Shown piece by piece: positions 26,167 through 63,925 of a DNA stretch of 64,000 bases. The translations under genes and the position numbers were made by a program. This DNA is from Escherichia phage Ec_MI-02. Under the pieces are notes generated by a model that saw nothing but the letters and a program-made list of their open reading frames with translations, made no database searches and was not told the origin of the DNA. Positions within the stretch are counted from its first letter, which is position 1. Every line of letters starts with the position of its first letter. The stretch lies in sequence record OP856590.1. One strand, 5' to 3'.

Positions 26167-26348
26167 AAGGAATTTATATAATTAATAAGTTCTTGTTCTT
26201 TATCGTCGAAATCTTTACACAGTTCTTCGTATTCGTCGGTATTAAAAGGACCGCATTCATCACAAACTTTTTCCAATTCGCTATTTTTATCCATAACTTC
26301 GTGAATAAGAGAAAATAGTCTGTCTTTTTGTTCTTTGCTTAGGCTCAC
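26163..26348 (-). CDS. Small acidic protein, related to the MxTREQ family
   Basis: 61 aa (M)SLSKEQKDRLFSLIHEV...; GTG start overlapping the upstream stop (GTGA). Confidence 0.45.
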   Translation of the reverse strand: MSLSKEQKDRLFSLIHEVMDKNSELEKVCDECGPFNTDEYEELCKDFDDKEQELINYINSL

Positions 26349-26521
26349 AGTATGTCAATCCCCAAAAGTTTTAAAATGACTCGTTTCTGATTCATAACCG
26401 CTACGATTGAATGACCGTTGGGGTCTTTTTGACCTGATCCAATTATAAATCCTTTTTGCGCAGAAAGTTCAATCAAAACATCAAGTTCACGTAATAATTG
26501 ATATTTTAGATCATCGTTCAT
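26345..26521 (-). CDS. Hypothetical small protein (58 aa, below ORF-track cutoff)
   Basis: Manual translation MNDDLKYQLLRELDVLIELSAQKGFIIGSGQKDPNGHSIVAVMNQKRVILKLLGIDIL; ATGA overlap with upstream stop and GTGA overlap with downstream start. Confidence 0.4.
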   Translation of the reverse strand: MNDDLKYQLLRELDVLIELSAQKGFIIGSGQKDPNGHSIVAVMNQKRVILKLLGIDIL

Positions 26522-26730
26522 TTTGGTTTACCTTCTTTAACGAAATCAGGATAAGGATAAAATCCTGAATAAAATCCTTCACCTTTATGATTGATGCATC
26601 CTTTATTAGAACAATAGCACCAATAATCGAAATCACAAGCCATTTCATCATTACATAAAGCAAAAACAACCGGCCATTCACACTTTTCGCAGTGGGCATT
26701 TTTAAGAATACTAGTTTGGCTCATAACCAT
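26518..26730 (-). CDS. Small cysteine-rich protein (possible zinc-binding)
   Basis: ORF track starts at TTG 26745; ATG at 26730 gives 70 aa with nine cysteines (CEKCEW...CNDEMACDFDYWCYCSNKGC). Confidence 0.5.
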   Translation of the reverse strand: MVMSQTSILKNAHCEKCEWPVVFALCNDEMACDFDYWCYCSNKGCINHKGEGFYSGFYPYPDFVKEGKPK

Positions 26731-26933
26731 GTAACCTTTAAGCAATATTCTTCTACATGTTGTTTACGACCTTTCTTATCAATAAAGGTATATTCAACGA
26801 ATGTTCCAATATAGTCTTTATCTACATCATGTGGACTATTAATTGGGCATTTAGTACGGCAAATGCGTTCCCATTGACGAATAATTTCCACTTTGTTTTT
26901 AGGATCAAACGGATGCGGGTAATGTACTTTCAT
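26721..26933 (-). CDS. Hypothetical small protein
   Basis: 70 aa, ATG start with GGTGG RBS. Confidence 0.5.
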   Translation of the reverse strand: MKVHYPHPFDPKNKVEIIRQWERICRTKCPINSPHDVDKDYIGTFVEYTFIDKKGRKQHVEEYCLKVTWL

Positions 26934-27384
26934 AATCCACCACTATTAAATCAATATCAGGAGTAAACATGTCAATTAATTTAGAAACCTTATCCCAATC
27001 ACCACCAGCAATACCGCAACCTATGCGTGGAATGTAAATTACTGGTTTAAACAAAAGGGTTTCTGCCTGTAGATTTAATTCTATCATGCAATTTACTAAA
27101 GCACCATAATCAAGATTAGGACCCGGTTCGTATTGCGTATACAAATTATAGCACATACTAAATCCTGTAGGATTATGTTTAAAAACAATAGACATATCGC
27201 CTAATTTATCACGAGAACCGTACTCGGTAGTGGTTTTATCTATTTCTAAAATTTTGGGATAGGCTCTTGCTAATTGACCCGCTACGCCAGAGCCCATTGT
27301 GTGGAAGCAATTGCACCCGTGCGCAATAATATTACCTTGAAGAAATAGGGCGACAATATCGCCCTTGATATATTTTACAATCAT
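26905..27384 (-). CDS. Macro domain protein (TARG1/OARD1/DarG-like ADP-ribose hydrolase fold)
   Basis: 159 aa; KGDIVALFLQGNIIAHGCNCFHTMGSGVAGQLARAYP and IPRIGCGIAGGDWDKV align by eye with the TARG1/C6orf130 macro-domain blocks (KGDLF...AHCIS...MGAGIA and PRIGCGLDRLQWE). Confidence 0.7.
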   Translation of the reverse strand: MIVKYIKGDIVALFLQGNIIAHGCNCFHTMGSGVAGQLARAYPKILEIDKTTTEYGSRDKLGDMSIVFKHNPTGFSMCYNLYTQYEPGPNLDYGALVNCMIELNLQAETLLFKPVIYIPRIGCGIAGGDWDKVSKLIDMFTPDIDLIVVDYESTLPASV

Positions 27385-27728
27385 CTAGTACTCAATCCTC
27401 GATTATAAGAATCTACTAAACGGTCAACCATTGAATGACAAGCGGCTTTATCTTTCTCCTCCGCAACTGAACATTCTAAGGTATTCCACTTTTTAGCATA
27501 TCGCTTTAACAATGTATCATTTTTGTATCTGCTTGATTTATCTCTTTCTCCGTCTTTATATGCATATATTAATTTCTGTGCAAATTCAGCTTGGCATGCT
27601 TTATTTTTCCCGCAATAATCCGCGGCAGTACGATTTACATACTCTCTAATTTCAGTATATGATGTATCTGCTGATGCAGAAGCAGAAAATGAAATTAATC
27701 CTATACATAAAACCAAAATTTTAGTCAT
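27381..27728 (-). CDS. Small secreted/periplasmic protein (signal peptide; T4 vs position)
   Basis: 115 aa; N-terminal MTKILVLCIGLISFSASASA signal peptide; four cysteines in mature part. Confidence 0.6.
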   Translation of the reverse strand: MTKILVLCIGLISFSASASADTSYTEIREYVNRTAADYCGKNKACQAEFAQKLIYAYKDGERDKSSRYKNDTLLKRYAKKWNTLECSVAEEKDKAACHSMVDRLVDSYNRGLSTR

Positions 27729-28266
27729 TTACTATTTCCAAAAGTTTATTATTTTTAAGGTAATTAGCCTTTTCTAGGACTTCAGAAGCATATTTAGAAC
27801 CTGCTTTAACATTCCATCCCGAATTATAAGAGGATATTGCTTTTCTTATATCGCCCTTATGTATATTTAACCAATAAGAAAGTTCAATGTACGCCCAGGA
27901 AGCTGAATTGGACCGTTTATTCAACATTCTTTTTATTTCAGCATCGGTCATATTATAACCAAGTTCCTTAACTCTTGCTCGCATGGTCGGCAAATAATTT
28001 TGGAACATTCCATAGGCATGATGCTTTGGTTTAGATTTTAAATTAACTCCGGCAGAGCTTTCTTGCCATAAAATAGCAGCCATTATATGACCCAATCCGC
28101 TCTTGTGGATATTTTTGTGTGTTTTATATTTTCCATCCTTAGAAAATTGTTCCCCGAATTGATATGCGTAACGCATGTTATCGAGTTGGACATTACTGAA
28201 AGTATGCTCGGAGCTATGTGCCATCATTGAAATGGCCAATAGACCAGCGAGTAGTGCTTTTCTCAT
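27721..28266 (-). CDS. Periplasmic lytic transglycosylase-like protein (SLT motifs)
   Basis: 181 aa; signal peptide MRKALLAGLLAISMMAHS; SLT-type motifs ILWQESS (catalytic Glu-Ser), GMFQ and SYNSG. Confidence 0.65.
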   Translation of the reverse strand: MRKALLAGLLAISMMAHSSEHTFSNVQLDNMRYAYQFGEQFSKDGKYKTHKNIHKSGLGHIMAAILWQESSAGVNLKSKPKHHAYGMFQNYLPTMRARVKELGYNMTDAEIKRMLNKRSNSASWAYIELSYWLNIHKGDIRKAISSYNSGWNVKAGSKYASEVLEKANYLKNNKLLEIVND

Positions 28267-28273
28267 GCTTACC

Positions 28274-28735
28274 TCATTGAGTTTTAATTACTGCTTTAGA
28301 AGCCTTTCCTGGTAAACGACGACTGTTGATAATTGCCATCCTGCATTGAAGCGACGGGTCTTTGAACTTTGCATTAGGTTTACAAACTGTAAATCCAAGC
28401 CAAAGATTTCCATCTGTGATTTCTAAACGCCCAGGACGATATTCAACCCCATCAATAAAATCCTCGTCAATGTCAGGACGCGGAGGCATACTCAGGAATT
28501 CATTAACTTCTAAAACATGGTCTTTTATTTTGTGGAATAATTCAAAAACATATGTCTCATCAATCTCCCGTTGAATTGCACGATCAAGAAGATGCTGAGA
28601 ATATTTTAGATGAAACGATGAGACCCCTGCTGCTTTTGATGCCTCACGAATCTCATTGTTAATTTGACGAAACTCCGACTCAAAGTGACGACGAAGCTTA
28701 TTTCGACGGATAAAAACTTCTGTGTTGATAGTCAT
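28274..28735 (-). CDS. regB: Site-specific endoribonuclease RegB
   Basis: 153 aa MTINTEVFIRRNKLRRHFESEFRQINNEIREASKAAG...; matches T4 RegB length and sequence as recalled. Confidence 0.9.
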   Translation of the reverse strand: MTINTEVFIRRNKLRRHFESEFRQINNEIREASKAAGVSSFHLKYSQHLLDRAIQREIDETYVFELFHKIKDHVLEVNEFLSMPPRPDIDEDFIDGVEYRPGRLEITDGNLWLGFTVCKPNAKFKDPSLQCRMAIINSRRLPGKASKAVIKTQ

Positions 28736-28762
28736 GTTATTCTCCTCTTAACTGATAGAAAA

Positions 28763-28792
28763 ATTATACCACAGTCAAGAGGAAAAGTAAAC
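28763..28792 (-). promoter_or_regulatory. T4-type early promoter upstream of regB
   Basis: Minus strand GTTTACT-17 bp-TGG TATAAT, about 25 nt upstream of the regB ATG. Confidence 0.6.
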
Positions 28793-28794
28793 AG

Positions 28795-29073
28795 TTATTC
28801 TTTAAATCTAATCAATTTATTCATAGACTTTGAAACTTCTGCACGGACCTCATGCAGGTTTTTAAGCTGTTCAAGACGTTGCTCATAGTAAGCAATTTCA
28901 TCTTCTTCAAGACAGTCCTGTGAATCTTCTTTAAGATAACGCGCATAGTCCTGGAAAGCTTTACGGACTACTTCTTGGAAGTCATCAAGACTTTGAATTT
29001 TCTTAGGAGCAACAGATACACGACGAGGGGCAGTATAATACTCATAACCAAACCCTGCGCTTAATTGAGCCAT
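28795..29073 (-). CDS. Hypothetical protein (T4 vs.3 position)
   Basis: ORF track starts at GTG 29115; ATG at 29073 with GAGGAAAA RBS overlaps the upstream stop (TAATG) and gives 92 aa. Confidence 0.55.
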
Positions 29074-29339
29074 TAATATTTTTCCTCTGGTTGGAACACA
29101 GCACGACAAGCCCACATACTGGCTTCTTTGAGTTTCGTTTTAGCAATAGTTAACTGATCGAGGCTTTCAGCATAATTCTTCGCGAATTCACAGTCTTCAC
29201 AATTATCTAGTGCTTCCCAAAATTCATCGTATAAAGCGTCAAAGATAAGTCCTAAACGAACTTCAGCATCTTTGATAGCATTCACTTTACCGATTTTCTC
29301 TTCAGTATGTGGCTTATAACCTTTAATATCTTCAATCAT
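29073..29339 (-). CDS. Putative Acb2-like cyclic-oligonucleotide sponge (T4 vs.4 position)
   Basis: ORF track starts at TTG 29375; ATG at 29339 with GAGGA RBS gives 88 aa [52 protein letters not shown]... Assignment is by synteny with regB and the GrcA-like vs.6 gene. Confidence 0.55.
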
Positions 29340-29553
29340 ATTTGACTTCCTCACCAGTACATAAATCATATTCAACTAAACGAATAGGTTCATGAATGCC
29401 ATATCCTTGAACAGAAATTTCTGTCGTAGGATAAATTCCATCAATATCACCCATGGTCCATGCTTCATTAAATTGCTGTTCGCCTGAATTACTAAACCAC
29501 TCGGCGAAAGCATTTAACACATCTTTAGAACCTTCAATAATTATCTTTGCCAT
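29332..29553 (-). CDS. Hypothetical small acidic protein (vs.5 position)
   Basis: 73-aa ORF, ATG start overlapping upstream stop (TAATG). Confidence 0.55.
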   Translation of the reverse strand: MAKIIIEGSKDVLNAFAEWFSNSGEQQFNEAWTMGDIDGIYPTTEISVQGYGIHEPIRLVEYDLCTGEEVKYD

Positions 29554-29915
29554 TACAAGCTCTCAGTAAAGGTACGAGCGATAACGTCGCGCTGCTGTTC
29601 CGGAGTCAGAGAGTTAAAGCGAACTGCATAACCGGATACACGGATGGTCAGCTGCGGATATTTTTCCGGATGCTTAACTGCATCTTCCAGAGTTTCACGA
29701 CGCAGAACGTTAACGTTCAGGTGTTGACCACCTTCAATTTTAACTGTAGGATGTGATTCAATTTCAATTTCACGGGTGTGCAAACCGTAGAAAATTTCTG
29801 GGTCTACAAAAGAGTCCTCTTTAAAGGTTTTAGAAACAATAATTCGTGCTTGAATACCATCTTCAAAATAAATAGTACCTTTATGTGTGCCTTCAAGAAT
29901 TTGATATGCTTTCAT
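29553..29915 (-). CDS. Autonomous glycyl-radical cofactor (GrcA/YfiD-like; T4 Y06I/vs.6)
   Basis: 120 aa; C-terminal 57 residues [59 protein letters not shown] carry the glycyl-radical signature RVSGYAVRF and match E. coli GrcA as recalled. Confidence 0.85.
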
Positions 29916-29921
29916 ATAACC

Positions 29922-30251
29922 TCAATTAGAAAATAAATTTATCCAAGACTGTTCTTTAATTAAAAATGGCTCAGAATCATATGCCATTAAACTTTGGGTG
30001 ATTAGTCCTTTAAAAGGTCCATCAATAAATTCCATGGTAAAATATGGAATTTTATTCATTAATCTTGCATTAGGAGCAGTACACAAAACTCTGCATCCTT
30101 TGAATACACCTTTTTGTAATTTGTATTGCTTAGGATAAAATTCGCTCAAGACATTATTATTTGCCAAAATTTCAAAATGATTCACCAATTTATTTTTAAT
30201 AGTTTTTGGCGAAAAATAAAGATATTCGAAAAGCTGTGTGTCTGTCATCAT
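29922..30251 (-). CDS. Hypothetical protein (vs.7 position)
   Basis: ORF track 29922..30302; ATG pair at 30251/30248 overlaps the upstream stop (ATGATGA), giving about 109 aa; start choice uncertain. Confidence 0.5.
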   Translation of the reverse strand: MMTDTQLFEYLYFSPKTIKNKLVNHFEILANNNVLSEFYPKQYKLQKGVFKGCRVLCTAPNARLMNKIPYFTMEFIDGPFKGLITQSLMAYDSEPFLIKEQSWINLFSN

Positions 30252-30835
30252 TGCATTCCGATCACAAAAAATTGAGGACGAGTAATACCACCGGTGCAAC
30301 ATTTACTATTGCAACAGTATTGTACAGTTTCAATATGAATATCGTAAATTTTATCCATATCGGGAGATTTAACAGGCTCATCGATTATATACAAAATCCG
30401 CGAAAGCGATAAACCTCTGAACTTGCTGCCTCTATTACCGATAAAACTACGGACAGAATCAGTAAATAAACGAAAACGTATATCATCACTAGAATAACGA
30501 GAAAATTCTTTTTTAATGTGGCCTGCAGAAATTTTAGCGTAAGCTGAAGTATTAGAAAGAACAATAACTGTTCCACCGTCATACAGCCAATTAGCAGCAA
30601 AGTTAGTCACAGCAGTTGATTTACCAGATTGGCGTCCACCATCTAGTCGAAGTGTACAATATTGTTTAAGCAAGTCTTCAAATGGTGGAATATAATCGTT
30701 TTTACAAATTTCTTCTACTCTAGCATCAGAATGGTGTGTAAAAGCATTCATCAGGGATAGATAAGGACCAGTTAAAAATGTTCTCATTTTATTCTCTCTA
30801 AATTTGGGCCATTCCATGGCGCATGAATTGTCCAT
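30248..30835 (-). CDS. Small P-loop NTPase of unknown function (vs.8 position)
   Basis: Up to 195 aa; Walker A LDGGRQSGKSTA and Walker B-like ILYIIDEP; start uncertain (ATGs at 30835, 30817, 30787). Confidence 0.6.
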   Translation of the reverse strand: MDNSCAMEWPKFRENKMRTFLTGPYLSLMNAFTHHSDARVEEICKNDYIPPFEDLLKQYCTLRLDGGRQSGKSTAVTNFAANWLYDGGTVIVLSNTSAYAKISAGHIKKEFSRYSSDDIRFRLFTDSVRSFIGNRGSKFRGLSLSRILYIIDEPVKSPDMDKIYDIHIETVQYCCNSKCCTGGITRPQFFVIGMQ

Positions 30836-30940
30836 TTCTGTATTTACCCATTACCGCACTTGGGCTCGACCTTATTACAGGTTGGCGGGAATCCCTCATA
30901 GAATCATGAGGTCCAGCTTGTTCCCATATTTCTTATTTGC

Positions 30941-31414
30941 TTATTTGAATGATTTGACGTACTGAATAGAGCCTTTGCTATTCACGAAAGCGATTTTACC
31001 ATTTTTGTTATACATGGTAGCAGTACGCTGATAACCATAAGTTTGTTTACCAGATTGATAACCAACTAATGCGAAATTATCTTCACCCATTTTATTCTGC
31101 TTAGCGCGGATACGTTCATGACCGTGTGCCATAAGAACCTTAGCGTCGCCAGTTGCAATGGATCTACGAGTTTTTTCATCTTCAACTGTATTAACAAAAT
31201 CGTCAAATGAATCAAATTTAGCATGAGATTTATTATACAGTTTTCCATCTACTGCATAATTATATCCCTGTACATCCATCTCAACTTCTGTACCATCATC
31301 CAATACAGCAGTGATTTTTTGACCTTTTTTAAATTTCAAAAGATCAGTAAAAGATTCAGCGATAATTTGAGAATTAATAGCTGCTTCAGTGATAAATTCT
31401 TGATATGTTTTCAT
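30941..31414 (-). CDS. Internal-protein-like head protein with capsid targeting sequence
   Basis: 157 aa; N-terminus MKTYQEFITEA is nearly identical to the T4 IPIII capsid targeting sequence (MKTYQEFIAE-A, a prohead protease site); basic lysine-rich body. Confidence 0.65.
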   Translation of the reverse strand: MKTYQEFITEAAINSQIIAESFTDLLKFKKGQKITAVLDDGTEVEMDVQGYNYAVDGKLYNKSHAKFDSFDDFVNTVEDEKTRRSIATGDAKVLMAHGHERIRAKQNKMGEDNFALVGYQSGKQTYGYQRTATMYNKNGKIAFVNSKGSIQYVKSFK

Positions 31415-31423
31415 GTGTTTCCT

Positions 31424-31840
31424 TTAAATGTAAATAGTTTTACCGTAGTATTTATACCAGTATGGCTTCATTAAAATTTTTTCATCGAGTCGTTGTTGAC
31501 TCAACTTAATAGCTGATTTGCATGGATTATAATCATTTTTCCATTCTGCTGGAATATCGCTGATGTCAGGAACTTCAGTATCTTTTATACTAAACCCACG
31601 TTTTAAGCATTCCGTTATAATGTCTGATTGACGCTTTCGCAAAAATTCTAACTTATCGTAAAAGAACGTGACATGACCAGAACCTAAAATAAACTCGGAA
31701 GATATTTTAAAATCTTTAACCCGCTTACCATTTGCAACATGTTTACGAACTATACCAAAAACACGCGGCAGTTCACGGTATTCTGCGATTAAATGTTGAT
31801 CAGCAAGTTCAGATACTAAAGTCAAATTAATACGAGTCAT
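31424..31840 (-). CDS. denV: Endonuclease V (pyrimidine-dimer DNA glycosylase)
   Basis: 138 aa [29 protein letters not shown]...; matches T4 DenV length and sequence as recalled. Confidence 0.95.
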
Positions 31841-31865
31841 TTTATCCCTCCAAGTAACTGTTAAT

Positions 31866-31895
31866 ATACTATCACAATTCTAGGAGAAAGTAAAC
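31866..31895 (-). promoter_or_regulatory. T4-type early promoter upstream of denV
   Basis: Minus strand GTTTACT-17 bp-TGA TAGTAT, followed by GGAGGG RBS and the denV ATG. Confidence 0.55.
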
Positions 31896-31899
31896 AACT

Positions 31900-32430
<531 letters not shown>

Positions 32431-32886
32431 TTAAAAGAGGCTGTTCATTATTCGGTAAAGTGAAGGGCCCATCACATATTGCCACTGAGTACGAGGAATA
32501 AGAGCAAAAGCATCCATCTCTGGAATCATAACGCCATCTTTATTTTCAAAATAAGACTCGCAATGGCAATTTCTAAACATCTCATGCTCTACTGGAATCG
32601 TATAATAAAATAACTGTAAGTCTTTATTACTAGAATATTTAAATACACCTAGGTCTTCTAGAAGGTCTGGATTATAATTGCTAAAGCCAGTCTCTTCTGA
32701 GCATTCTCTTCGTGCTGCATCTAGTGCGCTTAAATCAGAACTTTCTACACGGCCCTTTGGAATATCCCAGCGATGTGCCATCATTCCAGGTTTACGAGAA
32801 CCAGTAACTCGTCCCATAAATAAATCTTTATCTTCTGTCATAAAGATAATACCAGCTGATAATGTTTTCATTTTAATTTCCTGCAT
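32431..32886 (-). CDS. nudE: Nudix hydrolase
   Basis: 151 aa; Nudix box GRVESSDLSALDAARRECSEETGF (Gx5Ex7REUxEExGU); position next to e as T4 e.1. Confidence 0.9.
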   Translation of the reverse strand: MQEIKMKTLSAGIIFMTEDKDLFMGRVTGSRKPGMMAHRWDIPKGRVESSDLSALDAARRECSEETGFSNYNPDLLEDLGVFKYSSNKDLQLFYYTIPVEHEMFRNCHCESYFENKDGVMIPEMDAFALIPRTQWQYVMGPSLYRIMNSLF

Positions 32887-33356
32887 TCAGTGATAAAATT
32901 ATTTAAATTTTGAGCATATTTCTTTTCATCAAAAATCTTTTGCTGCCTACGTAACCGCCATGGCATTTCAATGAACACGCACCATATTCCTGATATTACT
33001 GCTGTTATAAAAATATTAACAAGCAGAGTAAAAAGAGCCCAATCTCCTATTCTATCCATTGGATTTTTTCCAAAGAAATAAAATACGAATGATGACACAG
33101 GAAGACTAATGATATACCATAAAAGCATATTCTTGCCTGTAAACCAATCAGCGTTCGTTAACTTAGCACGACCGTTTTGAATACATACGAACTTATCATC
33201 TGTTACAGTAGATGGCTTAGCTGCTTGATATCCCATTCTAAACTCCCTAATTAATCGTTTCTTTGTATCTTCAGAACAGCCGCTCCAGTCAACTCTATCA
33301 ACTGAAATGCCATCGTCCCCATCATCTAAATCATACCAGCGAGTTTTTAAAATCAT
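32868..33356 (-). CDS. Membrane protein, member of a three-gene tandem family
   Basis: 162 aa; two transmembrane helices; C-terminal tail ...NNFITECRKLK. Confidence 0.6.
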   Translation of the reverse strand: MILKTRWYDLDDGDDGISVDRVDWSGCSEDTKKRLIREFRMGYQAAKPSTVTDDKFVCIQNGRAKLTNADWFTGKNMLLWYIISLPVSSFVFYFFGKNPMDRIGDWALFTLLVNIFITAVISGIWCVFIEMPWRLRRQQKIFDEKKYAQNLNNFITECRKLK

Positions 33357-33727
33357 TTGATTTTCCTACAATCACTCACAAACTCTTTCATTGATTCATT
33401 TTCAATATAAGACATGTAGTTATTATATTCTTTTAATTGTATTTTGTAATCCTTTTTTCTTTGCCAATTTATTTTAAAATTATCATAATGAAAATATAAA
33501 ATAATACCAAAGAATGAAAATAATGAAATTACTATAGTATAATGAAGTTCGCTCCAAACTTCTATTATATCTACTATACCGCTGACATTACTGCGGATGT
33601 TTAAAATAAAACAGTCAATTAACAATCCAATAAGACTACCCGCAAGAGCTGCAGCCAACGCCACAGCAAGAATTAATAGTGCCTCAGGAAACGAATATTT
33701 GACTTTATTTAGTTTTGGCTTTTGCAT
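33353..33727 (-). CDS. Membrane protein, member of a three-gene tandem family
   Basis: 124 aa; two transmembrane helices; C-terminal tail ...EFVSDCRKIK. Confidence 0.6.
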   Translation of the reverse strand: MQKPKLNKVKYSFPEALLILAVALAAALAGSLIGLLIDCFILNIRSNVSGIVDIIEVWSELHYTIVISLFSFFGIILYFHYDNFKINWQRKKDYKIQLKEYNNYMSYIENESMKEFVSDCRKIK

Positions 33728-34101
33728 CGTGATTCCTTAACAAATTTCATAATTTCATCAAATTCATACGCAGCAAGTTTAAGCTGATGTTCTTTTTTAA
33801 TCTTTTTGCACCGGGCTTTCCAATCACGTACACGTTTACGATAGTGTCTTCCTTGATACCAGTATCCTACCCAATTCACAGGTACTAATAAAAGCGGAAC
33901 TACCAATGGAAGAATTAGTGTTGCTCCAAATATTACACCAGATTCAATATCAGTCATAACGTCTATAACCATTCCAGCAATTAGCAAAATCACAAATGAT
34001 ACAGCTACCACAGGACCTATTAATACATCAGTAGGAATTAGCTGACGCTTTGGTTCATACTTCACAGGTTTACTTGGAAGGTATAGTGATGGCTTTGACA
34101 T
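33709..34101 (-). CDS. Membrane protein, member of a three-gene tandem family
   Basis: ORF track starts at TTG 34122; ATG at 34101 gives 130 aa; two transmembrane helices; tail ...KFVKESRCKSQN. Confidence 0.55.
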   Translation of the reverse strand: MSKPSLYLPSKPVKYEPKRQLIPTDVLIGPVVAVSFVILLIAGMVIDVMTDIESGVIFGATLILPLVVPLLLVPVNWVGYWYQGRHYRKRVRDWKARCKKIKKEHQLKLAAYEFDEIMKFVKESRCKSQN

Positions 34102-34684
34102 ATTCTCTACATTCCTTAACAAATTTTTCTAATAATAAATCGCTTTCAAAATTGGGATTTTCTACGAATTTATCAAAAAGATCATCAACAATAGTTAAGA
34201 TATTCTTTTTACTAAGAATACGCTTATTTTCATATTTTGTTTCAGAATCAACTATAAGAGTAAAGAAATATTTCTTTCCCTGAAATTTTACCGTAGTATC
34301 AATATAGAACAAATTTGACTTTTGTAAATTACGTTTAAACCATGCATCACTTAAACTATAAACGCCAAGATAATCATAATCGTCGTTTAAATAACAAACC
34401 GTCCATTCAGGAGAAATGAAATCAGTAAATTCAACATCAAAATCACACGTCAATGAATGAATTGATTCAATACTGTTAATGAGTATTCCAGGACGTATTA
34501 AAGACTTTTTACCTCTAGAAAATCTTCCGGAAAGGCTTTCATCAGTTTCGTATGAAGACCCCCAATAGTAATTACGTCCTTCTGCCATGCGTTTAAGAGC
34601 ATTTAGTAATTGGTCTGGAACATCAACCTGTCTTTGGAACTCTTCAAACATTGAATTGAAATCACTTTGCATTTTCATTTTCAT
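34070..34684 (-). CDS. Hypothetical protein
   Basis: 204-aa ORF with ATG start. Confidence 0.6.
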   Translation of the reverse strand: MKMKMQSDFNSMFEEFQRQVDVPDQLLNALKRMAEGRNYYWGSSYETDESLSGRFSRGKKSLIRPGILINSIESIHSLTCDFDVEFTDFISPEWTVCYLNDDYDYLGVYSLSDAWFKRNLQKSNLFYIDTTVKFQGKKYFFTLIVDSETKYENKRILSKKNILTIVDDLFDKFVENPNFESDLLLEKFVKECREYVKAITIPSK

Positions 34685-34703
34685 TCCTATTTACTCCAAG
34701 TAT

Positions 34704-34721
34704 AAGGGGCCGAAGCCCCTT
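34704..34721 (-). terminator. UUCG-tetraloop stem-loop (possible terminator or stability element)
   Basis: Minus strand AAGGGGC-UUCG-GCCCCUU directly after the stop of 34726..35319; no U-tract. Confidence 0.4.
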
Positions 34722-34725
34722 ATCA

Positions 34726-35319
34726 TTATTTCAGAGAATTAATGTATTCCTGAACATCGGCAGAGGTAGTTTCAACCCCAGAAATATTACCGTTAAAGGT
34801 TTCAACTCGAGCAAGGGTATCTTCAATATCAACCTTAGTCAGTGCTGCAATTTCAACTACATCATCGGCAGTACTAATTCCAAGGGCATTTGCTGCACGA
34901 GTTTCACGGATATATTCCAATTTAACTGCAAGTTCTTGGCGAGCATCATCTAACTCAACTACTTTCTTGGCGATTTCAATTCGCATTTCAGCATAACCGT
35001 CAGCCTTAGTAGTCAACTGCTCAGCTGTTCGACGATATAGTAAACCGAGTTTAGCATGCATTGTTACATCTTGACCTTCGGAAAGAAGTTTACGAATTTC
35101 ACGCTCTTTTGATTCGGCCTGTCGATTCTTTTCGACAATAAGTTCACGAATACGTTTTTCTTCATTAATAGATTTAACAGAAGCAGTTTTTAGATCTTTA
35201 ATTTTATCAAGCAGTTTTGCTGCTGCAGCAGTATACTGTTCTTCAACAGATAGATTTTTAGCCATAGCAGAACCAAGTTTAGTGCGAATAAACTCAACAA
35301 TTTTCTTCAGTGTGTTCAT
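34726..35319 (-). CDS. Coiled-coil protein (possibly PspA/IM30-like)
   Basis: 197 aa, ATG with AAGGAAA RBS; long amphipathic helical stretches; weak eye-level resemblance to the PspA region ALLKEREDLARAALIEKQ. Confidence 0.6.
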
Positions 35320-35360
35320 AGTATTTCCTTAGGTTGATTAAAAATAAAATCTGTGGAAAA

Positions 35361-35390
35361 ATTATATCATACTATTTAAGAGATGTAAAC
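35361..35390 (-). promoter_or_regulatory. T4-type early promoter
   Basis: Minus strand GTTTACA-17 bp-TGA TATAAT, inside the 3' end of the upstream gene. Confidence 0.55.
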
Positions 35391-35892
35391 TATTTTTAAT
35401 TTTACAAATTCGTTCAGCTTCTTCAACGGCGGCGGCGATAATGCTTTTAGCTATAGGAGTACTAATACTAGTAGCTTTTACACTTAACACGATTTCTTTA
35501 TCTTTACTAGGCCAACCCCATGATTTTTCACCATGAGTGCCTTTAATTACAGCAGACACCTCAAGTGAGCATCCACTGTCACATGTTTTTACATTAACAA
35601 CCCAAGGGTCACTTTTCTCAACCGATTTCTCAGCCGGTTTATCCCAGTAAATATTAAGAATACGTGGGACATCAAATTTAGCAGGGCAAATCTTAACTGT
35701 AAGACCTTCGCTTTCTAGCCAATTAATAAGAGGGCGTTCATACATGCGGCGATGTGGGCTTTGGACTCGACAAGCCTTGTGCCCATTGCTTGCGGCTTCA
35801 CTAAGCTGTTCTAATACCTGTTTTTGCATTATTGATAAGATATCATCAAAAGATTTTTCGGAAGTTTCATTCAGTTCGGTATAAAGAGACAT
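35362..35892 (-). CDS. Hypothetical protein
   Basis: ORF track starts at TTG 35907; ATG at 35892 with GAGGAAAA RBS gives 176 aa. Confidence 0.6.
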   Translation of the reverse strand: MSLYTELNETSEKSFDDILSIMQKQVLEQLSEAASNGHKACRVQSPHRRMYERPLINWLESEGLTVKICPAKFDVPRILNIYWDKPAEKSVEKSDPWVVNVKTCDSGCSLEVSAVIKGTHGEKSWGWPSKDKEIVLSVKATSISTPIAKSIIAAAVEEAERICKIKNSLHLLNSMI

Positions 35893-35948
35893 AACGGTTT
35901 TCCTCAAATTGTAGGCTCATAATATCTCAATCATGAGCCTATGTAAAC

Positions 35949-36212
35949 TTATTTCATATTATTGAAATATTCTTCTGCGATTTCGTCGTTATCGTGGTAA
36001 ACTTTAGAAGACAGTTTAACATAACCTTCTGCTGTGAACATGTTAATCACAACCTTTACAGTATACCACTGTCCGTCTTCATTACCCATTACTGCGTAAG
36101 TTTCAAACATCGGATGGTCAGGACCGATAACTTTAATATCATTCACTGTACGACCGAAATCTTCTGAAACACATTTCATAAAGAAGTTGAACAGTTCGCC
36201 GTAATTATCCAT
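35949..36212 (-). CDS. Hypothetical protein
   Basis: ORF track 35949..36266 runs into a promoter; ATG at 36212 with GGAGA RBS gives 88 aa MDNYGELFNFFMKCVSEDFGR... Confidence 0.55.
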   Translation of the reverse strand: MDNYGELFNFFMKCVSEDFGRTVNDIKVIGPDHPMFETYAVMGNEDGQWYTVKVVINMFTAEGYVKLSSKVYHDNDEIAEEYFNNMK

Positions 36213-36256
36213 TTCATTCTCCAAGTTGTTTTTCTGTATCAGTAGTTGATAGTTGT

Positions 36257-36286
36257 ATAGTACCATGGAAGAACAGGGATGTAAAT
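36257..36286 (-). promoter_or_regulatory. T4-type early promoter
   Basis: Minus strand TTTACA-17 bp-TGG TACTAT. Confidence 0.5.
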
Positions 36287-36420
36287 AGTTTTGTGAAAAA
36301 ATTTTTAAAAAGTTTTAGGGAATTCTAGGGAAGGGAGGGGCAATTAAAAGGTAGGATAATATATTATAAAGGGTATAAACTAAATGATGCCTAGAGAGGC
36401 CAAGAAAGGCCTAGATACCA

Positions 36421-36444
36421 AAAACCCCAACCTTTTGGTCGGGG
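36421..36444 (-). terminator. Rho-independent terminator
   Basis: Minus strand CCCCGACC-AAAA-GGUUGGGG followed by UUUU, just after the stop of the 36454..36927 gene. Confidence 0.6.
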
Positions 36445-36453
36445 CTAAGAATG

Positions 36454-36927
36454 TTATTTGATTTGTTTAGCAGACCAAATGCGGTCTTTAATAATTTTTT
36501 GGATGTCTTCAACATACTCAAGAGAGTGAACATGCGGATTATCTTTGAAACTATAAGCACGGGCTAGCTTTTGGCCTTCGGTTTTGATTACTAAAAGCTC
36601 TTTAAGGATAGCTTCATATTTAGAGATAATTCCTTTAACGATATTTTTTTCTTGTGCAGCTTTAGGATCTGCTTTAGGAGCAGGTTTACCCGAAGCCTTT
36701 GCAAAAGCAGCGCCAGTAGCAACTAAACTTTTCCAGGCCATACTAACTGCATTTCCCGTAAATCCTTCTGCTTTCATGTCGCGAGCAAATTGGAATCGTG
36801 ATTCGTCAGAAGCATCTTTATAGGAATATTTACCCGCTGCAATGGCTGCTTTTGCGACAGCTTGAATTTCGGTGCTAGATGCTTCATTTAACACCGCTTC
36901 ATTTAAAAATTGAGCATATGATTTCAT
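36454..36927 (-). CDS. Internal-protein-like head protein with capsid targeting sequence
   Basis: 157 aa; N-terminus MKSYAQFLNEA fits the T4 internal-protein targeting motif (MK[ST]Y.[EQ]F[IL].EA); alanine/lysine-rich; TATAAATA late promoter upstream. Confidence 0.6.
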   Translation of the reverse strand: MKSYAQFLNEAVLNEASSTEIQAVAKAAIAAGKYSYKDASDESRFQFARDMKAEGFTGNAVSMAWKSLVATGAAFAKASGKPAPKADPKAAQEKNIVKGIISKYEAILKELLVIKTEGQKLARAYSFKDNPHVHSLEYVEDIQKIIKDRIWSAKQIK

Positions 36928-36967
36928 CTTATTTCCTGTTTTAATTCGTGGATTTAATATACTACTA

Positions 36968-36975
36968 TATTTATA
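36968..36975 (-). promoter_or_regulatory. Late promoter
   Basis: TATAAATA on the minus strand (plus TATTTATA) about 35 nt upstream of the ATG at 36927. Confidence 0.55.
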
Positions 36976-36977
36976 CT

Positions 36978-37004
36978 AAAAAGCCCCAACCTTTCGGTCG
37001 GGGC
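36978..37004 (-). terminator. Rho-independent terminator closing the tRNA/stable-RNA cluster
   Basis: Minus strand GCCCCGACC-GAAA-GGUUGGGGC followed by UUUUU. Confidence 0.65.
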
Positions 37005-37049
37005 TAAGCCTTGCGGTAACCTTGTCGGGGTTCCACCTGCTAAGGCAAG

Positions 37050-37320
37050 TGTTTGTACGAAACGCCGGGATTCGAACCCGGTTATTAAGCAGTTGACGCT
37101 ACTCAATATTTTTAAAAGGCCATATCTCGACCATATCCGAACGTTCCGTCAAAAACGCTACTCGGCTTACGGCAAAGATATTTCCTCGAATCGATAATTC
37201 TGCGCGCCGTTTCAGCTGTGATGTAAGGGGACATTAACAGATCGTAAAGATTTGATAATGTCAGTCCTTACTCAGGGAACATCAGTCCGACGACTTACCG
37301 GTAGCGACCCGGTTTCTTGT
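37050..37320 (-). ncRNA. Putative stable small RNA(s), position analogous to T4 RNA species 1 and 2
   Basis: About 270 nt with no ORF between tRNA-Arg and the terminator; contains a tRNA-like T-arm (CCGGGTTCGAATCCCGG) but no complete cloverleaf that I could fold. Confidence 0.35.
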
Positions 37321-37321
37321 T

Positions 37322-37397
37322 TGGTCGAGGCAGTAGGGATCGAACCTACGACCTAGGACTTAGAAGGTCCTTGCTCTTCCTTCTGAGCTATGCCTCG
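37322..37397 (-). tRNA. tRNA-Arg (anticodon UCU)
   Basis: Hand-folded 76 nt: acceptor CGAGGCA/UGCCUCG, D-arm GCUC..GAGC, anticodon loop CUUCUAA, T-arm GUAGG-UUCGAUC-CCUAC, encoded CCA. Confidence 0.8.
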
Positions 37398-37401
37398 TAT
37401 T

Positions 37402-37476
37402 TGGCGGACGTGATAGGATTCGAACCTATAACCAATCGCTTAACAGGCGATCGCTCTGCCATTGAGCTACACATCC
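37402..37476 (-). tRNA. tRNA-Asn (anticodon GUU)
   Basis: Hand-folded 75 nt: acceptor GGAUGUG/CACGUCC, anticodon stem AUCGC/GCGAU, loop CUGUUAA, T-arm AUAGG-UUCGAAU-CCUAU, encoded CCA. Confidence 0.7.
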
Positions 37477-37480
37477 AAAT

Positions 37481-37567
37481 TGGTGGGGAGTGATGGAGTC
37501 GAACCACCCGAGTCGCAATGACAATGGATTTACAGTCCACACCGCTACCTCTACGGGATAACTCCCC
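37481..37567 (-). tRNA. tRNA-Tyr (anticodon GUA), long variable arm
   Basis: Hand-folded 87 nt: acceptor GGGGAGU/ACUCCCC, anticodon stem GUGGA/UCCAU, loop CUGUAAA, long variable arm, T-loop UUCGACU, encoded CCA. Confidence 0.7.
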
Positions 37568-37579
37568 TAATTCTTAATT

Positions 37580-37654
37580 TGGTGGCCCTGGGTGGAATTG
37601 AACCACCATCTGGCGATTATGAGTCGCTTGCTTGAACCTTCCAGCTACAGGGCC
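37580..37654 (-). tRNA. tRNA with CAU anticodon (Ile-lysidine type or Met)
   Basis: Hand-folded 75 nt: acceptor GGCCCUG/CAGGGCC, anticodon loop CUCAUAA, T-arm GGUGG-UUCAAUU-CCACC, CCA; D-arm somewhat irregular. Confidence 0.6.
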
Positions 37655-37662
37655 AAATTTTC

Positions 37663-38145
37663 TTATTTTATGTAATATTTATTTAAAAACTTTCTAGCTT
37701 GAGTATGGCTAACATTTATAGCGTTTGCATAATTTTTAATAAAACCTCGTTCATCCATATTAAAATTTTCTAATATTTTTAATCGTCTAGTTATCTCATC
37801 TTGACTTAAGGTACTTGCATTATTTTTAGAAATTTTTTCTAAGGACTGTGCCGAGTGTTTTCGACCATTAAAATTAAAATTTTTAGATTTTGGAGGAAAT
37901 CTAGCATTTAATCTCGCATCTTTTGTATTTTGATTATTAGTTGCGCAATATATGTTATTTAATGAATATGGTCCTTTATCGCCGAAACGGCACATGCAGT
38001 ATTCATGACCCTTTCTTCCGCGCTTATCATAATTTCCCGTTGATTTCCACCAATGCAGCCATTCATCAAAAGTTAAATTCCATTCAATGTTTCTACGTAT
38101 AGCAGAATTCCGCTGAGAAATATATTTTGCATAATCTTCTTTCAT
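37663..38145 (-). CDS. Hypothetical protein inside the tRNA cluster, possible HNH(HNN)-type endonuclease
   Basis: ORF track starts at GTG 38148; ATG at 38145 gives 160 aa; segment GHEYCMCRFGDKGPYSLNNIYCATNNQN resembles an H-N-N nuclease core; same position as segB in T4. Confidence 0.45.
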   Translation of the reverse strand: MKEDYAKYISQRNSAIRRNIEWNLTFDEWLHWWKSTGNYDKRGRKGHEYCMCRFGDKGPYSLNNIYCATNNQNTKDARLNARFPPKSKNFNFNGRKHSAQSLEKISKNNASTLSQDEITRRLKILENFNMDERGFIKNYANAINVSHTQARKFLNKYYIK

Positions 38146-38192
38146 CACAAATTTCTCTACTTATTCAATACACTGAGCTAAATCAGCAAAAC

Positions 38193-38282
38193 TGGCGGAG
38201 GCGATAGGATTTGAACCTATGAGTCGCCGGAGCGACTGCCGGTTTTCAAGACCGGTGCATTAAACCACTCTGCCACGCCTCC
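38193..38282 (-). tRNA. tRNA-Ser (anticodon UGA), long variable arm
   Basis: Hand-folded 90 nt: acceptor GGAGGCG/CGCCUCC, anticodon stem CCGGU/ACCGG, loop CUUGAAA, long variable arm, T-loop UUCAAAU, CCA. Confidence 0.8.
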
Positions 38283-38284
38283 AG

Positions 38285-38358
38285 TCTCCGCGGCAGGATT
38301 TGAACCTGCGACATTCTGCTCCCAAAGCAGACGCTCTACCAAACTGAGCTACACGGAG
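38285..38358 (-). tRNA. tRNA-Pro (anticodon UGG)
   Basis: Hand-folded 74 nt: acceptor CUCCGUG/CGCGGAG, anticodon loop UUUGGGA, T-arm GCAGG-UUCAAAU-CCUGC; no CCA; 2 nt from tRNA-Ser as in the T4 Pro-Ser dimer. Confidence 0.8.
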
Positions 38359-38368
38359 TAAATTAAAT

Positions 38369-38442
<74 letters not shown>

Positions 38443-38447
38443 AAATT

Positions 38448-38534
38448 TGGTGCGAGAAGTGGGACTCGAACCCACAAGGAAATCATTCCGCAGCATTTTA
38501 AGTGCTGTGCCTTTACCAATTTGACCATTCTCGC
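38448..38534 (-). tRNA. tRNA-Leu (anticodon UAA), long variable arm
   Basis: Hand-folded 87 nt: acceptor GCGAGAA/UUCUCGC, anticodon stem CAGCA/UGCUG, loop CUUAAAA, long variable arm, T-loop UUCGAGU, CCA. Confidence 0.8.
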
Positions 38535-38535
38535 G

Positions 38536-38608
38536 CTGGGAATAAAGGACTCGAACCTTTGCATCCTGGAATCAAAATCCAGTGCCTTACCAACTTGGCT
38601 AATTCCCA
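38536..38608 (-). tRNA. tRNA-Gln (anticodon UUG)
   Basis: Hand-folded 73 nt: acceptor UGGGAAU/AUUCCCA, anticodon stem CUGGA/UCCAG, loop UUUUGAU, T-loop UUCGAGU; no CCA; abuts tRNA-Leu as in the T4 Gln-Leu dimer. Confidence 0.8.
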
Positions 38609-38677
38609 ATTATTAACAAAGGCTCTTAAGCAAGAACCCTTGATGATAGAGGGTATTAATCAGTGCGATATGAGTTA

Positions 38678-38704
38678 ATAATAACAAATAATTCTTAAAG
38701 CATA
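38678..38704 (-). promoter_or_regulatory. Possible MotA-dependent middle promoter upstream of the tRNA cluster
   Basis: Minus strand ATGCTTTAA (MotA-box-like TGCTTTA) followed 12 nt later by TATTAT; spacing slightly shorter than consensus. Confidence 0.3.
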
Positions 38705-38705
38705 T

Positions 38706-38993
38706 TTACCATTTATGATAATACATATTTACGATGCATTCAAGACCCAAAGGATTCTTGAAAATATCATATTCAAGAGGACCTTTTTCTGTTTCGATAA
38801 AGAAATCAAAATTTACTGTATTAAATTTACGGTCTTCCTTCACTAATTTAACTTGTGAAGATGAACGGTCAATGTAAACCTTTTCAACTTCAAAATATGT
38901 TAAAATACCATAATCATCAATCAAAGCTTTAGCCGCGTCTTGATCGTATTTATATCCATTTTCAATGGATGATACTTTAGCATAAAGAATCAT
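38706..38993 (-). CDS. Hypothetical protein
   Basis: 95-aa ORF with ATG start, immediately upstream of the tRNA cluster. Confidence 0.55.
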   Translation of the reverse strand: MILYAKVSSIENGYKYDQDAAKALIDDYGILTYFEVEKVYIDRSSSQVKLVKEDRKFNTVNFDFFIETEKGPLEYDIFKNPLGLECIVNMYYHKW

Positions 38994-38995
38994 TA

Positions 38996-39376
38996 TCAGC
39001 CTTCATCAACAATAGTGTGAGTATTGGCATTTACAATTTGCCACCAATCAAAGCGATTAGAACCATAATCTGGTTTGTTTTCATTTTCTTTGATAATGTC
39101 ACGGAGTTCATCTTCAGTGGCGGCTTTCGCGATTAAATCAGCATATCCACCACGAGGATAATAATTATCACCTGCAAAAAGTAAAAAGTTTGGTTTAATG
39201 TTATTGAACTCTTCAAGAGTAATAACTTTTCCTGACGGTTGAACAATCTCTACATATTTATATCCCAATTTTTGAGCAGCATCTACTGCTTTAAGCAAAG
39301 TATCATGAGCCCATCCAATTTGACAACCTGGCTTTTCAGATGGATTAGCCTGATAATCCGCATACACTTTGTACAT
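38996..39376 (-). CDS. Hypothetical protein
   Basis: ORF track 38996..39415; ATG at 39376 with GGTGA RBS, adjacent to the upstream stop, gives 126 aa. Confidence 0.55.
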   Translation of the reverse strand: MYKVYADYQANPSEKPGCQIGWAHDTLLKAVDAAQKLGYKYVEIVQPSGKVITLEEFNNIKPNFLLFAGDNYYPRGGYADLIAKAATEDELRDIIKENENKPDYGSNRFDWWQIVNANTHTIVDEG

Positions 39377-39377
39377 T

Positions 39378-39563
39378 CTATTCACCTTTAGAAATTTTAT
39401 CCATAACGATAGCAATTAAACCAATTAAAAATGCTACTACAAGTGAAAAAACATTTTCTGCTGTAGTCAATAATCCGCATATAAATCCAACAAACATTGA
39501 AAAACTAAAAGCAGAAGCAGAAATTGCAATAGCAACATTTCGAATTAATTCACAGCGTTTCAT
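39378..39563 (-). CDS. Small membrane protein
   Basis: 61 aa, ATG start, two hydrophobic helices; downstream of early promoter 39593..39622. Confidence 0.5.
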   Translation of the reverse strand: MKRCELIRNVAIAISASAFSFSMFVGFICGLLTTAENVFSLVVAFLIGLIAIVMDKISKGE

Positions 39564-39592
39564 TTTATTCTCCTCAGTAGTTGATAGGGTAA

Positions 39593-39622
39593 TAGTATCA
39601 CAACTAAAACCCTATGTAAACA
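39593..39622 (-). promoter_or_regulatory. T4-type early promoter
   Basis: Minus strand GTTTACA-17 bp-TGA TACTAT. Confidence 0.55.
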
Positions 39623-39633
39623 ACTTTGTGAAA

Positions 39634-39891
39634 TTATTTTAAATCTTCTAATCGTTTCTTCATCTTAGAACCATTTTTAGCAATTTCTCCTGCATCTGAG
39701 CATAATGCTAAAAGTGCTTTAACTTTAGTTTGGTCTCCTTTAAAAGATGAAGGATCGACTGCAGCAGCAAGTTCTTTAATACGAGAGAAAAGACGCTCAG
39801 CTTCAGCTAAAGCCATTCCAAGCTTTACTTCCATACCATGAGAAGATTCAGTAATAGTAGTTTTTGTAGCAAACTCTTTGAAAGTTTTCAT
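39634..39891 (-). CDS. Internal-protein-like small head protein (ipI position)
   Basis: 85 aa; N-terminus MKTFKEFATK resembles the internal-protein capsid targeting sequence; lies next to 57B where ipI sits in T4. Confidence 0.5.
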   Translation of the reverse strand: MKTFKEFATKTTITESSHGMEVKLGMALAEAERLFSRIKELAAAVDPSSFKGDQTKVKALLALCSDAGEIAKNGSKMKKRLEDLK

Positions 39892-39921
39892 TTTATTTTC
39901 CTAATTAATTTTGATGAGATA

Positions 39922-39951
39922 ATAGTATCACTACCTCATCAGCATGTAAAC
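39922..39951 (-). promoter_or_regulatory. T4-type early promoter
   Basis: Minus strand GTTTACA-17 bp-TGA TACTAT, about 30 nt upstream of the ATG at 39891. Confidence 0.55.
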
Positions 39952-39963
39952 AACTTTGTGAAA

Positions 39964-40660
<697 letters not shown>

Positions 40661-60787: not shown

Positions 60788-63925
<3,138 letters not shown>

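Follow-up and report, generated by a model that had tools for sequence, protein, structure and literature searches.

A gene in the regB-denV region of Escherichia phage Ec_MI-02 corresponds to acb2 (vs.4) of phage T4

A short gene between regB and denV in Escherichia phage Ec_MI-02 raises the question of whether it encodes the cyclic-dinucleotide sponge Acb2 or only occupies the map position of the T4 gene for this protein, vs.4. The gene was analysed in the context of the window, i.e. the whole stretch of 64,000 nucleotides from sequence record OP856590.1, and the relevant features are collected in Table 1. Judged by its sequence, the window is that of a Tequatrovirus. A 1.3-kb stretch around vs.4 shares 99.5% identity with Shigella phage pSs-1, the closest relative, and with several ESh phages, and the identity of this stretch to hundreds of Tequatrovirus genomes lies in a band of 95-99%. 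Over 4.2 kb around vs.4 the window is colinear with T4 and 91.7% identical to it.

Table 1. Features of the window around vs.4 and their comparison with T4
Feature	Position	Strand	Amino acid comparison with T4	Evidence
vs.4 / acb2 CDS, cyclic-dinucleotide sponge	29073..29339	-	100%	ORF; PDB 7UQ2; T4 NC_000866 vs.4 63078..63344; Pfam PF24729; phrog_717
Shine-Dalgarno GAGGA of vs.4	29348..29352	-		sequence read directly; 8 nt upstream of ATG, within the 3' end of vs.5
vs.5, 73 aa, upstream neighbour	29332..29553	-	frameshifted in T4	phrog_1986 end to end
vs.3, 92 aa, downstream neighbour	28795..29073	-	97.8%	PDB 9wiw_A
regB endoribonuclease, synteny anchor	28274..28735	-	99.3%	Pfam REGB_T4, 230 bits
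vs.6, GrcA-like glycyl-radical cofactor, synteny anchor	29553..29915	-	96.7%	Pfam Gly_radical, 67.1 bits
vs			100%	
vs.1			99.4%	
vs.7			98.2%	
vs.8	30248..30899	-	78.1%	
denV	31424..31840	-	77.5%	
Macro-domain protein, Tk.4 position	26905..27384	-	56.6%	Pfam Macro, 33.8 bits; phrog_335 'phosphatase'
57B / acb1, second anti-CBASS gene of the phage	39964..40419	-	99.3% (151/152 aligned)	PDB 7T26 'Acb1', E 4.1e-62
Internal-protein gene	30941..31414	-		DUF7412; phrog_3155
Internal-protein gene	39634..39891	-		phrog_3499

Gene call and identity of the 88-residue product

The open reading frame comprises 267 nt including the stop codon, with an ATG at 29339..29337 and a TAA at 29075..29073, and its product of 88 residues is acidic (pI 4.66, 19 D+E versus 12 K+R, 10.2 kDa). 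The coordinates, the length and the acidic character given in the original prediction were thus borne out. The 25 nt upstream of the ATG were found to be the same as in T4 by direct comparison. The list of open reading frames also holds a form of 100 aa at 29073..29375, and if translation began at its TTG start at 29375 the true product would be a longer protein with different properties. However, the 36 additional nucleotides fall inside vs.5, where they are read in another frame, whereas the ATG at 29339 is preceded by GAGGA at 8 nt; residues 1-88 are what the T4 annotation gives and what the crystallised, functional construct contained, and the 88-aa form already covers the Pfam and PHROG profiles fully. 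The TTG-start reading was dropped on these grounds and we regard it as extremely improbable. The analysis below refers to the form of 88 residues that starts at the ATG.

When PDB sequences were searched with phmmer, this product was identical at 88/88 residues to the entry 7UQ2, 'Vs.4' (E 1.9e-57), and the same complete identity was found to vs.4 of the T4 reference (NC_000866/AF158101) and to ORF 62.5 of X04567. In the T4 reference genome vs.4 is annotated with equal length and is flanked by regB, vs.3, vs.5 and vs.6 (GrcA). The gene order given in the original prediction (regB, vs.3, vs.4, vs.5 and the GrcA-like vs.6) was right and colinear with T4. The prediction had placed the gene in the T4 vs.4 slot, had called its product Acb2-like and had named an alignment with T4 Vs.4/Acb2 as the way to check this; the alignment gave identity over all 88 residues, and the assignment was therefore correct but understated.

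At the nucleotide level the gene differs from T4 at 12 positions (95.5% identity). All of these lie at positions divisible by three, i.e. 12/12 at third codon positions, and are therefore synonymous. Given the unchanged amino acid sequence together with exclusively synonymous differences, this indicated a real gene under strong purifying selection rather than a chance reading frame. The family profiles agreed with the pairwise comparison: Pfam Acb2_Tad1_hairpin (PF24729) was matched over its full length (profile 1-58/58) with 71.4 bits against a cut-off of 27, and phrog_717 with 113.6 bits (E 2.3e-32). PHROG 717 is the family by which Jenson et al. gathered Vs.4 homologues (PMC10097602). In a tblastn search the protein was found in 1235 phage records, 121 of them at 99% identity or above, a group that includes T4, the T4 sequence X04567 from 1986 (ORF 62.5) and Yersinia phage fPS-90.

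The functional residues published for T4 Vs.4 (PMC10097602) are all kept in the product: Y8, H11, T12, K23, L29, F33, L60, A66, A73, S74, A77, R79 and F82. These include the residues of the cyclic-dinucleotide pocket (Y8, H11, K23, R79 and F82, in T4 numbering) and those of the hexamer interface (L29, F33, A66, A73 and A77). The family profile, the homology to the founding member, the pocket and the interface, which define the Acb2 family at the sequence level, were consequently all present in the product. Relative to T4 Vs.4/Acb2 (7UQ2) the amino acid sequence, length, start context, flanking genes, ligand residues and interface residues are the same, and the differences are the synonymous nucleotide changes and the form of vs.5, which in T4 has 58 aa and stops 36 nt short of vs.4 whereas here it has 73 aa and overlaps it by 8 nt. 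The intact, overlapping vs.5 is the sole local difference from T4 near vs.4, and in sequence, length, context and neighbours there is no departure from T4 that would hint at a new property of vs.4. That we are dealing with the acb2 gene (vs.4 in T4) of a T4-type phage, a Tequatrovirus, we regard as practically certain, and the sequence holds no argument to the contrary.

The name is still rare in the databases. In pSs-1 the corresponding copy (gp134) is annotated as 'hypothetical protein', as it is in nearly all phage records among the matches listed, and NCBIfam holds no model for Acb2, Acb1, Vs.3 or Vs.5. The Ec_O157kw record already names its vs.4 homologue 'anti-CBASS protein 2'. The gap in NCBIfam and the label in pSs-1 are annotation lag and not counter-evidence.

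Ligand binding and specificity

Since the sequences are identical, the properties measured for the T4 protein can be set beside the gene directly. Vs.4 was reported to bind 3'3'-cGAMP with a Kd of about 31 nM, and its 2.0 Å structure is a hexamer with three cGAMP molecules, one per pocket at the contact of two protomers; the bases are held by stacking with Y8 and F82, polar contacts come from Y8, H11, K23 and R79, and L29, A66, A73 and A77 form the hexamer interface (Jenson et al. 2023, PMC10097602). Mutation of pocket or interface residues abolished the inhibition of CapV, and knockout of vs.4 in T4 reduced the titre about 50-fold on cells with a Cap2-mutant CBASS (PMC10097602). Cao et al. 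obtained a Kd of about 84 nM for T4 Acb2 and 3'3'-cGAMP (PMC10312549). The hexamer and its function as a sponge are documented for the identical sequence by crystallography, AUC, ITC and CapV assays (PMC10097602; PMC10312549).

By analogy with this literature, the helical-hairpin protein of 10.2 kDa would assemble in Ec_MI-02 into a homohexamer with three pockets, each between two protomers, and each pocket would clamp one cyclic dinucleotide, with Y8 and F82 engaged in pi-stacking and H11, K23 and R79 providing polar contacts. Holding 3'3'-cGAMP with a Kd of about 30-80 nM, the hexamer would keep the CBASS messenger from its effector, the phospholipase CapV, which when starved of cGAMP would not set off abortive infection. 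The signal would be sequestered and not degraded, and the protein would soak up immune cyclic dinucleotides as a stoichiometric sponge. The other anti-CBASS protein of the phage, Acb1 (T4 57B; 7T26), has the same purpose, the removal of CBASS cyclic-nucleotide signals, but it is an unrelated protein that works as an enzyme and cleaves the signals instead of soaking them up (PMC10312549; bioRxiv paper).

The specificity of Acb2 proteins varies within the family. PaMx33 Acb2 (8H2J and 8IXZ; Huiting et al. 2023 as cited in PMC10312549) is described there as having the same family membership and fold, with a hexamer that acts as a sponge by holding three cyclic dinucleotides, and its identity to the vs.4 product is about 24% (PMC10312549). 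In our phmmer search these two entries were the weaker PDB matches (E about 0.03), with Y11/K26 of PaMx33 aligned to Y8/K23. Both PaMx33 and JBD67 Acb2 also bind cA3 (PMC10312549), and binding of 3'cADPR with inhibition of type I Thoeris is known from ten homologues, Acb2_43 among them. From this variation it could be argued that the Ec_MI-02 protein has the Acb2 fold but mainly targets another natural signal, e.g. 3'cADPR of Thoeris or a cyclic trinucleotide. Against this, the product is identical to T4 Acb2, for which binding of several cyclic dinucleotides was measured and neither cA3 nor cAAG was bound (PMC10312549), and it keeps the pocket residues Y8, K23 and F82. The cyclic trinucleotides are bound in PaMx33 Acb2 by a second pocket that involves R67 and T74, whereas T4-type Acb2 has D61 and T68 at these positions, an unkinked helix and no cA3 binding (PMC10312549). 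In the vs.4 product D61 likewise replaces R67, with T68 corresponding to T74, so the feature that marks the PaMx33/JBD67 type was not found and the product lies outside the Acb2 subgroup with additional binding of cyclic trinucleotides. The D61R mutant of T4 Acb2 did not regain cA3 binding (PMC10312549). Acb2_43 is distinguished by extra N- and C-terminal beta strands. A main target other than cyclic dinucleotides is thus very unlikely, and the sponge for cyclic dinucleotides is the reading that we retain.

Neighbouring genes and expression

The three genes vs.5, vs.4 and vs.3 are packed head to tail. The TGA stop of vs.5, which ends at 29332, overlaps the start of vs.4 by 8 nt (ATGATTGA), and the stop of vs.4 and the ATG of vs.3 (29073) have one base in common (TAATG). 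Given these overlapping starts and stops, the three genes are probably translationally coupled, and vs.4 would be carried on a polycistronic message with vs.5 and vs.3. A promoter and terminator scan of positions 28200..32600 returned 18 sigma-70-like sites versus 17.3 expected from shuffled sequences, i.e. no enrichment, and the sole notable promoter-like site (TTTACT-17-TATAAT with TG, 28791..28763) lies a short distance ahead of regB. The scan gives no ground for claiming a promoter of vs.4 itself. Since the scan stayed at the level of shuffled sequence, the transcription unit of vs.4 was deduced solely from the gene overlaps and the colinearity with T4. An Rfam scan of the whole window at gathering thresholds returned only tRNAs, none of them in or near vs.4. 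For this phage we infer that acb2 is expressed early and plays the same part in the phage's own host.

The neighbours of vs.4 were also compared with T4 individually. The vs.5 product matches phrog_1986 over its full length, and the shorter vs.5 of the T4 reference (L001 5382..5558) has a deletion of 1 nt after codon 17 that shifts the frame. Given this single-base deletion relative to the 73-aa form, the T4 reference annotation of vs.5 looks frameshifted (or mis-sequenced); it is because vs.5 is intact here that it overlaps vs.4.

The 92-aa Vs.3, which has no known function in the T4 annotation, matches a PDB entry of 109 aa deposited as 'Endoribonuclease' (9wiw_A, E 4.9e-38), and a literature search on vs.3 with regB found nothing. 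This 92-aa neighbour had itself been the first guess for Acb2, based on a Y...KK pattern, and was rejected: it is Vs.3 and matches 9wiw, and the gene under study matches 7UQ2. Vs.5 and Vs.3 might be further counter-defence factors, with vs.5-vs.4-vs.3 forming a compact co-expressed anti-immunity module and not a lone sponge gene; the support for such a module is solely adjacency, and we put it forward as a tentative and rather doubtful suggestion.

Companion genes and differences from the T4 map

The original prediction had further listed Acb1, a macro-domain protein and internal-protein genes within about 13 kb of early region as signs of an anti-defence island. All of these companions, including two internal-protein genes, were found, and they span 13.5 kb from 26905 to 40419. 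Both internal-protein genes encode the N-terminus MKT[YF][QK]EF that is also present in T4 IPI, IPII and IPIII. The acb1 gene is located 10.6 kb from vs.4 and is not contiguous with it, and over 25 genes whose role is unrelated or unknown lie between the companions, among them regB, vs, vs.1, GrcA, denV, lysozyme e, nudE, e.2-e.8 and nine tRNAs. As far as can be read from gene order, this layout is the ordinary T4 map, and 'anti-defence island' is a loose label that gives a description and not a finding.

Several of the genes along this stretch differ from T4 more than their neighbours do. The identity of the macro-domain protein to Tk.4 is low although the next gene, vs, is unchanged; its match to the DarG DNA ADP-ribosyl glycohydrolase is weak and far below threshold (28.9 bits versus a cut-off of 250). 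Between the positions of tk.2 and tk.3, about 370 bp that are not in T4 (26347..26720) contain two small reading frames without a known function, one of 58 aa (phrog_3452) and a Cys-rich one of about 70-75 aa (phrog_2306). Compared with T4, vs.8 is disrupted at its 5' end: the N-terminus of the T4 protein (MRDSRQPVIRSS...) is encoded by a reading frame of its own (33 aa, 30798..30899), and the main reading frame, starting at 30835, encodes 195 aa. This 195-aa product contains the P-loop-like sequence GGRQSGKST and weakly matches the ATPase region of the terminase large subunit (phrog_2, E 3.6e-6).

The identity of denV to T4 is 74% in DNA, and its protein identity stands against 97.0% for the adjoining lysozyme gene e, a difference that pointed to a mosaic replacement of denV alone. 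The internal-protein loci at 30941..31414 and 31424..32394 (both on the minus strand) are rearranged relative to T4. An internal protein of 157 aa (DUF7412/phrog_3155) is encoded between denV and vs.8, and ipII and ipIII are absent between denV and e, the T4 ipII and ipIII genes matching over just 47-60 nt around the shared N-terminal targeting sequence. The same internal-protein layout is present in Shigella phage pSs-1. T4 IPI is a known anti-restriction internal protein; the ipI slot beside acb1 holds instead a different internal head protein of 85 aa (phrog_3499) with the N-terminus MKTFKEFATKTT. Nine tRNA matches were found at 37325..38608 (minus strand) versus eight tRNA genes in T4, and the blastn map of the window shows nothing that corresponds to the segB homing-endonuclease region of T4.

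Publications of 2023-2025 on the identical protein already describe the acb2 gene, its structure, its ligand and its biological role. The T4 protein was further shown to bind 2',3'-c-di-AMP (Kd about 62 nM) and to be both required and sufficient for triggering the OptSE (Panoptes) defence, and 14/15 T4 escapers of Panoptes carried loss-of-function mutations in acb2 (PMC12657218). The sponge would therefore come at a cost for the phage, given that hosts with Panoptes (OptSE) would detect it as Acb2 soaks up the decoy 2',3'-c-di-AMP. The practical value of the result is in annotation, as the gene can safely be named acb2. This identity predicts that the phage would resist CBASS systems with low cGAMP output and would be sensed by Panoptes.
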